UHGV virus genome: UHGV-0130837 | Direction: 5' to 3' (one strand) | Source of the DNA: a virus | DNA: 10,219 nucleotides | In this document: positions 3,963 to 8,706 of the stretch, piece after piece | How positions within the stretch are numbered: the stretch's first letter is position 1 | Layout of the letters: every line of letters begins with the position of its first letter | Position numbers and translations under genes: made by a program | The notes under the pieces: model-generated | Database searches by the model: none | What the model saw: the letters and a program-made list of their open reading frames with translations, nothing else | What the model was told of the DNA's origin: nothing

Positions 3963-5699
3963 TCACACAATGATGGGATTACTGAAAAAGTCGTCGATAT
4001 CGCCAGAATCATCCTCATAGCCTTCGGAGGCACCGATTGCCATAGCGCCCGCTACAATGCCGTCGATACGCCCGGTACTTTTTTTCTTGGCAAAAATTCG
4101 GTTTTCTTTCTGATCAGCCTCCGTCACTGCTGAAGCCGCATTCCAGCGAAGACAAGGGTTCGTCCTGATGATAATGACACTGTCATCAAGCAACTCTTCA
4201 AACAATTCGATGGAGTGAGGCATCCACAGCCCGGAATCTTTCGCTTTGTAATACCCTTGCCCATGAGGGATTAACGGAACAGAAACAGATGCTTCCTCAA
4301 GCTCCGGCTCAAGATATTTAATGCGATACTGGTCGAAGGCGATGGCCTTGATATCAAACTTCTGAGTCAGATCTGCAATGCGCTGGGCAACAAAGCCGTA
4401 TTTCACTGCTTTGCCAGGTGTGGTGTGGATGTGACCATCTCGCTCCCAGGCGTCATAAGGTACCCGGTCCGTTTTGGCCCGTTCCAGTAACGTATCTTTC
4501 GGGGTCCAGAACTCCACCAGCAACTTACGTTGTTTTGGAAAAAACAACGCCAGTGCCGTCAAATCACGCGATCCGGACAGGTCTAAACCGCCATAGCATT
4601 CCTCACCTTCCAGTTCATCTGGATCAAAGCTCTCCTCACAACCCATCCAGACATCACTGCTCATCCACGGATTAGCCGCGTCAACCCACTGACAGAAGTT
4701 AAGACGTCTGACGATGCTCTCTTTCGATGGCATCCCGCGGGCCTGAGTCACCTGCTCACGAAGATAGCTTTCTTCAAAGGTGTGACCCAGCGAAGGGTTA
4801 GCTTTCTTCCAGCAGGACTCATCCTTGAAAGGATCGTCTCCTTCATCCAGAGAACAAATGAAGGCAAAAAAGCTGTCATCTTCTATCGAACCGGCAGAAA
4901 CCTTTCGGCCGTATTCGTGATAGTCATAGCAGACACTCGTTTTATCGTGCCCACTGTTGGTGATCATGAAAATCAGCGCCTGCCGACGACCTTTGGTACC
5001 GGCACGCATCATTTCAACAACCTGATTGCTTTTATGCTCGTGAACTTCATCAATAAGAGCACAATGCGGTCGCGGGCCGGACTGCCCGTCATCTGAACTG
5101 ATTGGACGAAAGAAGGAACCAGACTGAAGAAAAGCCAGGTTCCATTCCTTCCCGGCACCACCTGATTTCTGAATACGTGCGGAAAGAGCTGGAGACTGAT
5201 CGACCATCGCCACCGCATCACGGAAAAGGACCATTGCCTGGTCTTTCTTCGTGGCAGCGGCATAAACTTCAGCGCGTGCTTCTTTATCCGCAGTGAGACA
5301 GTAAAGCCCTATACCCGCAGACAGAGGGGATTTACCGGATCCCTTCCCGGACTCCACATAGACCATTCGGAACCGGCGAAAACCTCTGGCGTTTTTCCAG
5401 CCAAAAATCGAACCGACGATGAAGCACTGCCATGGCAGCAACACGAAAGGCTCGCCTTCGAAATCACCACCATTGAGCTTCAGAACTTTCGCAAAATAGT
5501 CAATCGAGCGTTGCGCCGCCTCAACATCCCAGTGCAGACCACGGGCATGACATGACTGCAGATCGTTGAGGTGGCGCTGGCATGAGTTACGTATGTCAGG
5601 ACCAGCCAGTTCTTTGCCCGAGGTTACATCCATCGCATATTGGGTTGCTGGATCAACCGAAGAACTTATCGAGCGTGTCCTCTTCGGGGTCTTCGCCAT
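3963..5699 (-). CDS. terL: Terminase large subunit (ATPase plus nuclease)
   Basis: 578 aa. Walker A-like VESGKGSGKS and Asp/Glu-rich C-terminal nuclease region. AGGTG Shine-Dalgarno upstream of ATG 5697-5699. The 5' end overlaps terS by 47 nt. Confidence 0.93.
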   Translation of the reverse strand: MAKTPKRTRSISSSVDPATQYAMDVTSGKELAGPDIRNSCQRHLNDLQSCHARGLHWDVEAAQRSIDYFAKVLKLNGGDFEGEPFVLLPWQCFIVGSIFGWKNARGFRRFRMVYVESGKGSGKSPLSAGIGLYCLTADKEARAEVYAAATKKDQAMVLFRDAVAMVDQSPALSARIQKSGGAGKEWNLAFLQSGSFFRPISSDDGQSGPRPHCALIDEVHEHKSNQVVEMMRAGTKGRRQALIFMITNSGHDKTSVCYDYHEYGRKVSAGSIEDDSFFAFICSLDEGDDPFKDESCWKKANPSLGHTFEESYLREQVTQARGMPSKESIVRRLNFCQWVDAANPWMSSDVWMGCEESFDPDELEGEECYGGLDLSGSRDLTALALFFPKQRKLLVEFWTPKDTLLERAKTDRVPYDAWERDGHIHTTPGKAVKYGFVAQRIADLTQKFDIKAIAFDQYRIKYLEPELEEASVSVPLIPHGQGYYKAKDSGLWMPHSIELFEELLDDSVIIIRTNPCLRWNAASAVTEADQKENRIFAKKKSTGRIDGIVAGAMAIGASEGYEDDSGDIDDFFSNPIIV

Positions 5700-6117
5700 T
5701 CACTTTCACCTTCGTCCTTGCCGCTGGCGTCAGACCGAATTCAACCAGGTAACTTTTAAAACGGCGGTCGGCATCGGCCAGCATCGAAACGGCCGGGTTA
5801 GCTTTGATAAGAAAACCACCCTCGGTCTGGACGGTATAGGTTCTTCCCTCTACTGCGATAGTGTCGCGCAACTGAAGAATATCAGCGTAAATATCGCATA
5901 GCCGTTCAAGGGCTAAGGTGTCGGCAACCGTTAAAACCCCCATCCCGTCAAGGAGAACAGTCAACCTTCCCCAGGCGACCTTTCCCCAGTCGGTCAGGTG
6001 CGCCGGCGGGCTTGGAATTTCTCGCGCCGGAGTCGGTTCTTTATCGTTGAGTTTACGTTTGCCCGGGTTGCCGGAGACCACTTTGAGGTGGGTCGGTTTC
6101 GGGCGTCGTCCTGCCAT
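5653..6117 (-). CDS. terS: Terminase small subunit, P27 family
   Basis: 154 aa. N-terminus MAGRRPKPTHLKVVSGNPGKRK is characteristic of P27-family small terminases. GGGAGG Shine-Dalgarno 5 nt upstream. Immediately upstream of terL. Confidence 0.85.
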   Translation of the reverse strand: MAGRRPKPTHLKVVSGNPGKRKLNDKEPTPAREIPSPPAHLTDWGKVAWGRLTVLLDGMGVLTVADTLALERLCDIYADILQLRDTIAVEGRTYTVQTEGGFLIKANPAVSMLADADRRFKSYLVEFGLTPAARTKVKVNGEDPEEDTLDKFFG

Positions 6118-6234
6118 CGGAACCTCCCGGAAAAAAACTTTTCATTTCGCGGTTGTGCACAAAAAGGAGGGGCGGCGGTCATTTCGGGTCAGACTTCTGA
6201 ACTTTTGACCCGCCCCTCCCCTATGGAATTGACG
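6118..6234. promoter_or_regulatory. Structured HNH-terS intergenic region; candidate cos / packaging-initiation site and/or terminator
   Basis: 10-bp perfect inverted repeat GGAGGGGCGG (6166-6175) / CCGCCCCTCC (6210-6219) encloses a second inverted repeat GGGTCA (6186-6191) / TGACCC (6206-6211) that shares 2 nt with the outer stem. An A5 run lies on the plus side (T5 on the minus strand after the stem). The region sits where cos lies in HK97-like genomes. Confidence 0.3.
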
Positions 6235-6576
6235 TCATCTGAACCAGTGAGAATTTGGATCAAGCGGAATACCGTTTTCATCGCAGCCGATTACGGTGCC
6301 GCGCTTCTCCATTCGCTGCTTCGTTGAGTCATGGTGCTGCTTACACAGCCCTTGCCAGTTCTTCCGGCTCCAGAAAAGCTTTTGCGCTTTCGCTATTGCC
6401 TGGCTGTCACCAGAGCGCAGAGCCTCTTTCAGTTTGTGCGGGATGATGTGGTCAACCACAGTGGCCGCTGTCACCCTGCCTTGCTCCTGGCACATGACGC
6501 ATAAGGGGTGCGCACGAAGGAATATAAGGCGCTCACGGTCCCATTTGCTGCCGTATATGCGCGGTTCTTTGTTCAT
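6235..6576 (-). CDS. HNH endonuclease (packaging-associated)
   Basis: 113 aa with CVMCQEQGR…VDHIIPH…WQGLCKQHH motif (Cys pairs and His typical of the HNH fold). Located directly upstream of terS, as in HK97-like phages. Confidence 0.88.
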   Translation of the reverse strand: MNKEPRIYGSKWDRERLIFLRAHPLCVMCQEQGRVTAATVVDHIIPHKLKEALRSGDSQAIAKAQKLFWSRKNWQGLCKQHHDSTKQRMEKRGTVIGCDENGIPLDPNSHWFR

Positions 6577-6631
6577 GTTATCGCCCCTTGAGCATTATCA
6601 CAGGCACTCAGTGAATGCCTGCTGTAATGCC

Positions 6632-6877
6632 TTAGCTGGACTGTTCAGCGCTAGTATCGAATAGCGGCAGCGCTTCAGTTGCTTCCTGCACTGCTTTCAT
6701 CGTCTTTGCCACCACTTCAGTCTCTGATGTGACACGGCTGTATTGCTGGATGAATAACTGATACTTGAGCGTACTATCCTGAACAAATTCTACAGCGACC
6801 TTTGCAGCGGCAGTGTCTTAGTTCAGGGTGGAAAGTAGGTTAAGACGAATCTGCTGGGCGTCGGTGATTTCGACCAT
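6632..6877 (-). pseudogene. Small ORF interrupted by an in-frame TAA (19 codons, stop, then 61 more codons in the same frame)
   Basis: ATG 6875-6877 with GAGGT Shine-Dalgarno 5 nt upstream gives MVEITDAQQIRLNLLSTLN, then TAA at 6818-6820. The same frame continues DTAAAKVAVEFVQDSTLKYQLFIQQYSRVTSETEVVAKTMKAVQEATEALPLFDTSAEQSS to TAA at 6632-6634. Verified by hand reverse-complementing. Confidence 0.3.
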
Positions 6878-6942
6878 GTCGTACCTCTATGCGATGTGGG
6901 GAGCATTATCGAAGCCATTCGGCAGAATGGCTCCTGTAATGC

Positions 6943-7143
6943 CTACTGTCGTTCCAGGTGTTCGTAACGTGAAATTGTCTTGCCGTTTGCGTTCATCACG
7001 TAGGCAATCTCTCCCTGCTTCAGGAATACGTTCTGGTCCATTCCAGACACCGCGATACTCTGCTGGTTGGGGTTGAAACCAACGCTCAGGCCACAATGGA
7101 TTTCTTCGCCACCATCTGGTGACATCACTTTTACTGTTAACAT
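6943..7143 (-). CDS. Hypothetical small protein (66 aa)
   Basis: Strong Shine-Dalgarno CAGGAG 7 nt upstream of ATG 7141-7143. The translation is protein-like (MLTVKVMSPDGGEEIHCGLSVGFNPNQQ…). No family recognised. Confidence 0.55.
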   Translation of the reverse strand: MLTVKVMSPDGGEEIHCGLSVGFNPNQQSIAVSGMDQNVFLKQGEIAYVMNANGKTISRYEHLERQ

Positions 7144-7163
7144 GCTTCTTCTCCTGCTTCTGG

Positions 7164-7190
7164 TAATAAAAAGCCCCGCTATTGCGAGGC
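7164..7190 (-). terminator. Putative intrinsic terminator (minus strand), 20 nt upstream of the 66-aa gene
   Basis: Minus-strand hairpin GCCTCGC-AATA-GCGGGGC (7 bp, one G-U pair) followed by TTTTTATT. Confidence 0.35.
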
Positions 7191-7278
7191 ATCACGATTA
7201 AAGGCTTCTACAGGGTGGCGGACAACATTTCTCCTCTATACTGTTAAATCGTCGAACTCAACAGAACAGGTAGAAAAT

Positions 7279-7563
7279 ATGATCGATCATTACTACGTAA
7301 CTCACGCTCAAATCCTGGCGCTGAGAAACGTTGTTGCTTTTATCGTGCAAACGATGCCCGAAGAACAAAAAGAAAATGTCCTTCAGGTTTTGAGAAAATT
7401 TGCTGAAATAGAATTAATGGATGGTATCGACACGCCGCCTACGAGTGATATCACCCCGAAAACAGTTGAAAAGTTAAATAAAGCCTACAAGGCAGTCTTC
7501 AATGACATTATCGATCTTTCAACGCCTGGCAGGGAATCTGCTTCAGCAAGCTACCTGCAATAG
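7279..7563 (+). CDS. Hypothetical protein (94 aa), moron-like cargo gene on the opposite strand
   Basis: ATG 7279-7281 with AGGT 7 nt upstream. Candidate -10 TATACT at 7237-7242. Followed by a hairpin terminator. Hand-counted GC of sampled 60-nt lines is about 40%, against about 57% in a capsid line. Mildly acidic, predicted helical, no signal peptide. No family recognised. Confidence 0.6.
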   Translation: MIDHYYVTHAQILALRNVVAFIVQTMPEEQKENVLQVLRKFAEIELMDGIDTPPTSDITPKTVEKLNKAYKAVFNDIIDLSTPGRESASASYLQ

Positions 7564-7585
7564 TTCTCGACCTTATCTCCATGAT

Positions 7586-7617
7586 GGCCAGAACGTTCTT
7601 GTCTGGCCCTTTCTCAA
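7586..7617 (+). terminator. Putative intrinsic terminator for the 7279..7563 gene
   Basis: Stem GGCCAGA (7586-7592) / TCTGGCC (7602-7608), 9-nt loop, followed by CTTTCTCAAGTTTG on the plus strand; no U-tract on the minus side. Confidence 0.4.
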
Positions 7618-7653
7618 GTTTGCTCAGTCGAAATTCAATATTCTTTGCCTTGA

Positions 7654-7884
7654 TCATCGCGTAACCCTGCCGGTTGGTTGCGGGCAGTTAGCCTGCACTG
7701 ATTTGTTGTGCGCCAGAATGTCGCGCTTCGTCTGCTTATCCAGCACATCGATATCGTGGTCAGTAAGGTAGATGATCCGCACCCAGCTGCACGCGGTATC
7801 AACCACCACCGGGGCGGGTAAACTTTTCGCGCAGCTCGCGATCAACATCGTCATCGCCCATACGCTTAACGCTCTCTTCAACAT
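7654..7884 (-). CDS. Outer-membrane spanin lipoprotein (o-spanin, Rz1-like), overlapped architecture
   Basis: Begins at Met54 of the 129-aa ORF: MLKRALSVWAMTMLIASC… is a lipoprotein signal peptide with lipobox IASC. The mature part is short, Pro-containing, with extra Cys. AAAGGGG Shine-Dalgarno 6 nt upstream. Starts inside the i-spanin gene in another frame and extends beyond it. Confidence 0.6.
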   Translation of the reverse strand: MLKRALSVWAMTMLIASCAKSLPAPVVVDTACSWVRIIYLTDHDIDVLDKQTKRDILAHNKSVQANCPQPTGRVTR

Positions 7885-8080
7885 CGCTGGCCCCTTTCGT
7901 GGCTTCTGCTTTACGTTCTGCCGCGGCGACGCTGGCGGCCGCCTTCTCTTCGGTGCGCTGCCGGCTGGCTTTCGCTTCTGCTTTACTGGTGCCTCGCGCA
8001 TGGCCAATGCCGAACGCGCCAGCAATAGCGCCCAGAATGACAACCACCAGCCCCGCGATAGCTTCTATTCCCATGATCAT
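7799..8080 (-). CDS. Inner-membrane spanin (i-spanin, Rz-like)
   Basis: 93 aa. N-terminal TM helix (IEAIAGLVVVILGAIAGAFGIG) followed by an Ala/Glu/Lys-rich helical region. Start overlaps the endolysin stop (ATGA). Caveats: shorter than typical Rz, and the charge distribution around the TM is atypical. Confidence 0.5.
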   Translation of the reverse strand: MIMGIEAIAGLVVVILGAIAGAFGIGHARGTSKAEAKASRQRTEEKAAASVAAAERKAEATKGASDVEESVKRMGDDDVDRELREKFTRPGGG

Positions 8081-8706
8081 CCCACCAGTACCGATTTTGC
8101 TTTCAGGAATCGGGCGCGTCGGTCATCAATGCCGTTCTGCCCGCCGTTGATAATCTGGGTCACGCGCACTAAATCTCCGTGGTATTTCAAACATCCGTTT
8201 GAGGTGTAAAACCAGGCTGCGCTGCGGGCCGCATTAATATATTTCTCCAACAACTCAGGGTTGCTGACTAAATCCAGTTTCAGTGCATTACCGCACTTCA
8301 TATAATTTTCGAGGAAGGTGATCCCGATAATTCCACGCCCGCGGTATTTCCAGCCATCGCCCGCAGCCTTATTGCCAAAACGATTGTTGTAGACGAGATT
8401 AGCGATCGCTCGTTGACGTTCGATCGGTAAAACCTTTTCGTAAGTTTTACGCCCCAGGGTGTTCGCCTGGTCCTGCGTGATGCGCTTTGCCTTCACAAAA
8501 CCAGCCAGGCCGGCAACGCTATAGTTAAAACTTTCGACCATCTGGGTAAATGACGTGCTTTCGTGTCCACACTGCGCTATGAACATCGCCTGATCGAGTG
8601 GAGCTGTAATGCCGAATTCTTTCATCGCAGCATCAATATGCGGAAACCAGCGCGCAGCTAACCCGGCGCTGATACCAGCCGCCCTTTGAAATTGTGATTG
8701 GTTCAT
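8077..8706 (-). CDS. Endolysin, glycoside hydrolase family 19 (chitinase-like) type
   Basis: 209 aa; sequence …FIAQCGHESTSFTQMVESFNYS…NNRFGNKAAGDGWKYRGRGIIGITFLENY… matches GH19-type phage lysins. No signal peptide. Start overlaps the upstream membrane-protein stop (TGATG). Confidence 0.88.
   Translation of the reverse strand: MNQSQFQRAAGISAGLAARWFPHIDAAMKEFGITAPLDQAMFIAQCGHESTSFTQMVESFNYSVAGLAGFVKAKRITQDQANTLGRKTYEKVLPIERQRAIANLVYNNRFGNKAAGDGWKYRGRGIIGITFLENYMKCGNALKLDLVSNPELLEKYINAARSAAWFYTSNGCLKYHGDLVRVTQIINGGQNGIDDRRARFLKAKSVLVG

Follow-up and report, generated by a model that had tools for sequence, protein, structure and literature searches.

We analysed the virus genome UHGV-0130837 (10,219 nucleotides; this whole stretch is called the window below, and positions count from its first letter), following up a 66-codon gene at positions 6943-7143. 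This gene behaves as an exchangeable cargo in a fixed slot: it lies between a predicted terminator and a two-tier hairpin, these boundaries are better conserved than the open reading frame (ORF) that they enclose, and in other phages the same boundaries enclose an unrelated gene. In the reading that we favour, the cargo would lack a promoter of its own, would be expressed by transcriptional read-through and would make a product that binds a host or defence component; taken as a whole, we hold this reading to be about as probable as its opposite. The cassette consists of four features, given here in the direction of transcription:

7163-7190, minus strand: predicted intrinsic terminator forming the 5' boundary of the cassette (stem-loop 7190-7173, T-run 7172-7163; from the terminator scan)
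7144-7162, minus strand: purine-rich leader CCAGAAGCAGGAGAAGAAGC, which holds CAGGAG at 7156-7151
6943-7143, minus strand: the 66-codon gene (phrog_3909), ATG at 7143-7141, stop codon TAG at 6945-6943
6902-6943, minus strand: two-tier hairpin forming the 3' boundary, beginning at the last base of the stop codon

The 66-codon ORF is almost certainly a real gene. Its length alone is uninformative (the window holds 74 ORFs of at least 40 amino acids (aa), so 66 aa is not above chance), and we base this conclusion on a profile match, on the number and conservation of its relatives, on a low ratio of nonsynonymous to synonymous substitution rates (dN/dS) and on a confident fold. The product, MLTVKVMSPDGGEEIHCGLSVGFNPNQQSIAVSGMDQNVFLKQGEIAYVMNANGKTISRYEHLERQ, matches the phrog_3909 profile with E = 4.8e-37 and 126.9 bits (residues 1-62 against profile positions 1-62 of 64). 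By tblastn the gene was matched in 252 phage records, and 192 IMG/VR loci carry it; a preliminary description of this DNA had named lack of conservation in related phages as the result that would speak against the ORF, and the opposite was found. That description had the coordinates exactly right, left the strand (minus) unstated and called the sequence protein-like, which the profile match, the dN/dS and the fold bear out. The gene is under strong purifying selection, with a median pairwise dN/dS of 0.068 (444 pairs; 31 distinct alleles of 198 nucleotides (nt)) and 23/11/52 variable sites by codon position in the same alleles. Mean column identity in a 30-member alignment of the family is 78%. 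AlphaFold2 models the protein as six strands in an all-beta arrangement with a mean predicted local distance difference test score of 94.2, and independent BFVD models of remote relatives superpose on this model with template modelling scores of 0.7-0.9. The protein (7.3 kDa, isoelectric point 5.5) is acidic and predicted to be soluble: its maximum Kyte-Doolittle hydropathy in a 15-residue window is 0.36, its grand average of hydropathy is -0.32, and no hydrophobic or transmembrane segment, lipobox or signal peptide was found in its sequence. Among the polar residues T3, K5 and E13 are conserved, as is the turn N51-x-x-G54-K-T56. One prophage copy (L031/L141, IMGVR_UViG_2582580926_000002) has a premature stop after codon 36 (...SGMD*), and the gene is therefore occasionally lost through mutation; a few other short products may merely be truncated by the ends of their loci.

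Searches for a named relative of the protein gave none. Both the single sequence and profiles yielded only sub-threshold noise against Pfam, NCBIfam, PADLOC and PDB sequences. The best Pfam match, DUF5502, scored 14 bits against a cut-off of 27, and we dismissed it as noise together with DUF3060, MqsA and a UTP18 WD-repeat. None of 36 diverse family members reached a curated family threshold in Pfam, NCBIfam or PADLOC, a wider-profile search of the annotated database returned nothing beyond close 'hypothetical' proteins, and an exhaustive profile search with the family recovered remote small relatives of which none is named. Very large repeat proteins (900-3900 aa; P0133, P0135, P0139 and others) matched only profile positions 19-43, many times over; their motif SVGYN..K.EISI is a beta-propeller-like or beta-hairpin repeat, and we regard the likeness as chance resemblance, not homology. 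The T4 antitoxin Dmd (PDB 5HY3 chain B) shares neither sequence or profile homology nor a clear fold identity with the 66-aa protein. Rad, the anti-retron protein of T5, was likewise rejected as its identity, being 189 aa long with a TOPRIM domain. No homologue of the gene was found on plasmids. Searches of the literature on phrog_3909, DUF2560, STnc450, lambdoid boundary sequences and accessory genes of the T5 tRNA region turned up nothing on the gene or on the hairpin element, and PhageMaP data on Bas63, a phage of another type, gave no information on the family. The preliminary description had recognised no family; this stands for Pfam, NCBIfam, PADLOC and PDB and falls for PHROG, where the uncharacterized phrog_3909 exists. 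The family forms 153 clusters at 90% identity, every one named 'hypothetical'. The sequence itself is thus not new: phrog_3909 is already catalogued, as 'hypothetical protein' in hundreds of genomes.

Judged by its sequence, the hairpin at 7190-7163 fits the definition of an intrinsic (Rho-independent) terminator. Its stem-loop, GCCTCGC-AATA-GCGGGGC, has seven pairs (six of them G-C) and a 4-nt loop, and is followed by TTTTTATTAC at 7172-7163. After the T-run the minus strand reads CCAGAAG, CAGGAG (7156-7151), AAGAAGC and ATG, so the Shine-Dalgarno sequence stands at a 7-nt spacer from the start codon; both the strong ribosome-binding site and the terminator just upstream had been proposed before and are upheld by the sequence and by the terminator scan. 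The arrangement is general, in that each lambdoid locus examined carries a GC-rich hairpin of 6-8 bp plus T5-6 upstream of the gene, and the distance from T-run to ATG is 20-24 nt in all lambdoid copies. The leader consensus, ATT(A/G/C)CCAGAAG(AAG)(C/T)AGGAGAAGAAGC-ATG, is nearly invariant (about 85 loci with 33 upstream variants). The terminator stems differ in sequence: at least six exist and all of them fold as a hairpin (GCCTCGC/GCGGGGC, TGCCGC/GCGGCA, GGTCGCC/GGCGGCC, GCCCTGC/GCGGGGC, GCCTGAC/GTCGGGC and GGCTGCC/GGCAGCC). Since the commonest of these stems is joined to at least ten unrelated upstream flanks, the terminator is part of the unit of the 66-aa gene and not of the sequence upstream. 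A search of positions 6100-8100 found no sigma-70-like promoter, and the spacing between T-run and ATG would leave no room for one. In a Citrobacter prophage (L089, positions 4955-4965) the spanin-like gene upstream ends within the terminator hairpin, whose loop contains its stop codon (gcgaTAGcgg), so that the 5' boundary of the cassette there overlaps the end of the lysis cassette.

The 3' boundary is a structured element that recurs far beyond this gene. In the window the hairpin at 6943-6902 has a lower stem GGCATTA/TAATGCT, a 2x2 internal loop, an upper stem GGAGCCATTC/GAATGGCTTC and a TGCC loop, with a minimum free energy of -23.1 kcal/mol (z = -6.8 against shuffles); no T-run follows it. 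A second copy stands in the same window behind the next gene:

6632-6877, minus strand: interrupted gene of the DUF2560 family with an in-frame TAA at 6820-6818 (E. coli homologues are annotated DUF2560)
6591-6631, minus strand: second two-tier hairpin, immediately behind the stop codon of DUF2560; the HNH start region follows after 14 nt (minimum free energy -24.4 kcal/mol, z = -4.5)

Most lambdoid copies of the 66-aa gene are followed by such a hairpin with differing upper stems, and the general form is a lower stem GGCATTA/TAATGC(C/T), a 2x2 internal loop, a variable upper stem of 9-10 bp and a loop of 3-6 nt. The pattern GCATTA-CA-G[variable 9-10 bp stem]C-GA-TAATGC was found in at least 120 stretches (IMG/VR loci L206-L314); it recurs one to three times per locus, each time at or just after a stop codon. 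Among the matches listed there are 83 distinct inner sequences, and the hairpin follows about 25 unrelated ORF families, including DUF2560, i- and o-spanins and phrog_1453. The upper stem covaries: in 58 distinct copies of equal length 98.4% of cells pair, a figure that drops to 31-46% on sliding the partner, and five upper-stem pairs carry 70 double-sided changes, values that none of 500 shuffles reached. These counts were made on a gap-free set (A4), since the MAFFT alignment (A3) had the variable-length upper stems out of register; the lower stem was set by the search pattern and is uninformative on covariation. No Rfam family describes the element. The only match, sub-threshold, was RF02051 (STnc450) at 6666-6606 on the minus strand, with 20.5 bits against a gathering threshold of 37; it covers the end of DUF2560 and the first half of the second hairpin, it pairs in a register other than that of the two-tier hairpin, and STnc450, an enterobacterial small RNA candidate, may itself derive from a related prophage intergenic hairpin. 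We also considered and rejected a sigma-70 promoter in the TTACAG...GATAAT arms of the element, where a 23-nt spacer is filled by the hairpin. The hairpin could be a processing, stabilising, protein-binding or recombination element, and a specific protein may recognise it, to judge by the conserved sequence of its lower stem and internal loop. The covarying two-tier hairpin is a widespread, previously undescribed RNA element.

Comparison of alleles shows how the boundaries relate to what lies between them. In a Citrobacter allele whose product (P0285) has 52% amino-acid identity to that of the window, the nucleotide identity of the ORF is 61%, against 88% for the 5' element and 87-91% for the 3' element. 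The terminator-plus-leader and the 3' hairpin moreover enclose, in 14 IMG/VR loci, a 109-aa protein of phrog_1453 (function unknown), which starts MFTVKQIINNATSLYEAKEITVARPG:

L094, L095, L102, L119, L121, L122, L125, L129, L131, L137, L144, L149, L152 and L154: loci with a phrog_1453 gene between the boundaries

These loci occupy the same position after Rz and before HNH and the small terminase gene TerS as the 66-aa gene does, and in several of them the upper stem of the hairpin is one base different from that of the window. Similarity between the phrog_1453 protein and the 66-aa family is limited to about 23 N-terminal residues and is not significant. The former begins M-F-T-V-K and the latter M-L-T-V-K, which may reflect either distant homology or a recombination junction within the first codons. 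Because the boundaries outdo the ORF in conservation and enclose an unrelated gene, we conclude that they define an exchangeable slot. In one further locus (L084) the 66-aa gene is directly followed by the version of the hairpin that follows DUF2560 in the window, the pattern expected if recombination between hairpin copies gains and loses cassettes. Two findings here are new: a promoter-less, 'terminator-first' cassette with boundaries more conserved than its cargo, and the alternation of two unrelated genes between identical boundaries.

Such boundaries might even be the true object of selection, as sites of RNA processing, stability or recombination, with the ORF a hitch-hiking passenger that persists mainly by lying between them. 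The greater conservation of the boundaries would fit this, as would the many unrelated ORF families that precede the 3' element among the matches listed, the replaceability of the ORF and at least one copy that is cut to a 36-aa product by a premature stop (L031/L141). A dN/dS of 0.07, together with 55-70% identity to copies in virulent phages that have no such boundaries, points instead to selection on the protein itself, and we consider the passenger explanation quite improbable.

In the window the minus strand runs through two holin-like genes, an endolysin gene, Rz, a 94-aa gene on the reverse strand, the terminator and the 66-aa gene, and on through the interrupted DUF2560 homologue, HNH, TerS (Terminase_4), the large terminase gene TerL, portal, protease and capsid; the neighbours agree with the preliminary description, which had listed a moron slot upstream, occupied by the 94-aa gene, and the interrupted ORF and HNH downstream. 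The same frame recurs in lambdoid prophages and phages of Klebsiella, Enterobacter, E. coli, Salmonella, Citrobacter, Pantoea, Yersinia and Pectobacterium. Of 85 lambdoid loci, 82 have a lysis gene upstream of the 66-aa gene on the same strand, at a distance of 62-2158 nt; this count is drawn mostly from related Klebsiella and Enterobacter prophages and so does not equal 82 independent observations, but the modules around the gene are genuinely diverse. Packaging genes of at least four kinds lie downstream, and this order is never reversed. By sequence, the 1.5-kb flanks of these loci form about 15 groups on the upstream side and about 15 on the downstream side, and Q antiterminator genes are found upstream in related lambdoid loci.

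A position always upstream of packaging genes could indicate a packaging accessory factor, which would assist terminase, HNH-mediated cos cleavage or the start of packaging; this was one of the two functions that the preliminary description had offered. The product would appear just before terminase in the late transcript, and in two virulent phages, TH18 and 05F01, TerL follows the gene on the same strand at a distance of 2.3-2.6 kb. A dedicated cofactor should however co-vary with its partner, and the packaging systems beside the gene are of at least four non-homologous types (HNH + Terminase_4 + TerL; DUF1441 + lambda-type TerL; DUF2280 + P22-type terminase; the Fraca type), usually with one to eight other small genes before terminase. 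The copies in T5-like phages lie in the early tRNA region, where the 4 kb on each side contain no annotated packaging gene, and the syntenic region of T5 lacks the gene. We judge a packaging role improbable in view of the unrelated kinds of terminase, the site in T5-like phages and the fact that phrog_1453 can replace the gene between the same boundaries and before the same HNH and TerS; the other function offered, cargo, agrees with the exchangeable slot.

The lysis genes on the other side suggest a second possibility, a fifth gene of the lysis cassette whose cytoplasmic product would regulate the spanin step or the timing of lysis. Lambdoid copies always follow Rz/Rz1, many of them by 62-74 nt, and being co-oriented they would be co-transcribed after the lysis genes. 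Against this, at least four lysis cassettes are involved: in the annotated lambdoid loci the endolysins are of GH19-like, GH108, lysozyme and CHAP types and the holins vary too. A terminator also stands between Rz and the 66-aa gene, and the protein has no transmembrane segment or lipobox. On these three grounds a lysis role is unlikely, and we assign it a low probability, all the more as no annotated lysis gene lies within 4 kb in the T5-like loci, tRNAs and a 472-aa gene part the TH18 copy from a spanin pair, and phrog_1453 can take the place of the gene. The TH18 pair is unannotated: at 4989-5680 of this locus (L204), directly upstream of TerL, we observed an i-spanin/o-spanin-like pair: the first protein (133 aa) has a hydrophobic segment at its N-terminus, and the second, a 97-aa lipoprotein that overlaps it, carries the lipobox LTGC. 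The order, lysis genes and then terminase, recalls that of lambdoid phages.

Outside the lambdoid phages the gene resides in the tRNA arrays of three virulent-phage families, which had not been described before. In the T5-like phages RN29 and fp01 tRNA-Met precedes it by 38 nt and a GrcA-like gene comes just behind it, and the T5-like Escherichia phage IrisVonRoten has a tblastn match as well; in the rV5-like Escherichia phage vB_EcoM_TH18 it lies between tRNA-Pro and tRNA-Leu, and in the phi92-like 05F01 after tRNA-Phe. None of these copies has the cassette boundary elements, and they share 55-70% amino-acid identity with the lambdoid copies. The recurrence in tRNA arrays of three unrelated groups raises the possibility of a tRNA-linked function, in which the protein would act on tRNAs or, as a counter-defence, inhibit an anticodon nuclease, a tRNA-cleaving retron or a PARIS-type effector. 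The tRNA region of the T5 family does encode proven counter-measures to the tRNA-cleaving retron Ec78 (bioRxiv 10.1101/2023.03.15.532788). Yet the window holds no tRNA gene and none lies near the 66-aa gene in the annotated lambdoid loci, the tRNA arrays of large phages generally collect small ORFs and homing endonucleases, the T5-like position is the edge of the tRNA region, and the protein shows no sequence or fold similarity to RNA-binding or nuclease-inhibitor families. We therefore see a tRNA-linked role as unlikely.

A last alternative is a classical moron, or lysogenic-conversion gene, which the repressed prophage would express to the advantage of its host. Variable presence, a known hypervariable slot and horizontal mobility between phages would all suit such a gene. 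We nevertheless regard lysogenic conversion as very improbable because the gene has no promoter of its own, its base composition is that of the backbone and it is equally common in phages that are strictly virulent and so never form a lysogen that could be converted. In addition, its terminator is immediately upstream and not downstream, and its product has no signal peptide or membrane segment. The GC content of the ORF is 48.8%, which matches the 51.1% of the window, with neighbouring late genes at 49-55%; it differs in this from the reverse-strand neighbour, at 42.1%:

7279-7563, plus strand: 94-aa gene between Rz and the terminator, phrog_19753 (function unknown, E 2e-61)

This 94-aa gene looks like a classical reverse-oriented moron and is also present in Klebsiella phage ST13-OXA48phi12.2 (L001, 3001-3285). 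As to the neighbour on the other side, intact DUF2560 homologues read NYD (aac tac gac, for example in L011) where the window reads N*D (aac taa gac); the TAA is a one-base nonsense mutation that makes a pseudogene, or a sequencing error.

With these alternatives weighed, we return to the reading of the gene as a promoter-less cargo. The cassette would comprise, on the minus strand, an intrinsic terminator, a leader with a strong Shine-Dalgarno sequence, the 66-codon ORF and a two-tier hairpin that starts from the stop codon. As no promoter fits between the T-run and the ATG, the gene would be silent in the lysogen. In lambdoid late operons, Q-modified RNA polymerase reads through intrinsic terminators. 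Transcription of the gene would then be confined to lytic growth and depend on antiterminated read-through, with HNH, terminase, portal and capsid following directly; our analysis makes lytic-only expression by this route probable. The terminator would at the same time shield the gene and the dangerous packaging nucleases from transcription originating in the variable genes that follow the lysis cassette. Bracketing of the ORF by stable structures, or by tRNAs in the virulent phages, suggests a processed or stabilised small mRNA segment, which the flanking elements would probably define or stabilise. The most speculative step concerns the product, which may bind a conserved host or defence component of enterobacteria, in host takeover or counter-defence. 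For a small, soluble and constrained protein shared by temperate and virulent phages of Enterobacterales, host or defence binding is the most plausible activity, although on the analysis as it stands we propose such a function only tentatively.

Several observations weigh against this reading, in addition to the relatedness of the lambdoid loci given above. Late expression would come too late against defences that act at DNA entry. The placement of the rV5-like and phi92-like copies 2.3-2.6 kb upstream of TerL leaves a loose link to packaging, and the many lambdoid copies that stand only 62 nt after Rz would suit a lysis-related role. The read-through itself is inferred, with a Q gene that lies outside the window. 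In favour of the reading, the tRNA-rich region of the T5 family has been established experimentally as an anti-defence island, but the 66-aa gene is not among the anti-defence factors identified there (bioRxiv 10.1101/2023.03.15.532788). The T5-like homologue, moreover, lies at the edge of the tRNA region, which may fall outside the mapped 8-kb island.

The boldest form of the proposal is that the 66-aa protein founds a new counter-defence or host-takeover family, delivered on an undescribed terminator-first platform whose boundaries mediate both lytic-only expression and the swapping of cargo. We give it a small chance of being right; if true, the protein could for example block an abortive-infection system that late proteins or damage to tRNA set off. 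The gene is common to temperate lambdoid phages and to three virulent enterobacterial families, some of which are in use in phage therapy work on Klebsiella, Salmonella and E. coli. Such a distribution is typical of proteins aimed at something common to their hosts, which makes the protein a reasonable candidate for counter-defence and host-takeover screening. The boundaries, better conserved than their cargo and shared by two unrelated genes, likewise offer a concrete case in which to test how accessory genes are swapped and how they are silenced in the lysogen.

Among known systems the cassette is nearest to morons in its cargo. Morons, a concept of Juhala and Hendrix, often have a deviant GC content. 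They are defined by their own promoter and terminator and by expression from the repressed prophage (PMC3594210). The 66-aa gene resembles them as a small extra gene that is horizontally mobile and stands between conserved late-operon modules in only some related phages: it is present in the T5-like RN29 and fp01 and absent from the syntenic region of T5, and the content of the lambdoid slot is variable. It differs in that neither a promoter of its own, nor a downstream terminator, nor a deviant base composition was found; the cassette has its terminator upstream, and the gene is at home in virulent phages. A second likeness is to the anti-defence island of the T5 family, whose factors include Rad, tRNA-Tyr and ORF71-73 (bioRxiv 10.1101/2023.03.15.532788). 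The T5-like homologue is small, variable and cross-family and lies in the same dispensable, tRNA-rich early region; the 66-aa protein is, on the other hand, neither Rad nor another characterised ORF of that island, and T5 proper lacks it.

The boundaries recall two further systems. Intercistronic hairpins that process or stabilise transcripts are known from the RNase III sites of phage T7 and from REP-type 3' stabilisers in operons. Like an RNase III substrate, the 3' element is a two-tier structure of about 16 bp with an internal loop, placed between cistrons of a long late transcript; it has no sequence similarity to these elements and no Rfam family, so that the likeness is one of size and shape. 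In the modular theory of Susskind and Botstein, conserved boundary or linker sequences have been discussed for lambdoid phages and mycobacteriophages. The term 'boundary sequences' itself appears in PMC3029335. The flanks described here resemble such sequences in being short and non-coding and in remaining 87-91% identical around ORFs that are 61% identical or unrelated. They differ in that both are structured, one as an intrinsic terminator and the other as a covarying hairpin that starts at the stop codon, and selection has therefore acted on their structure and not only on homology for recombination.

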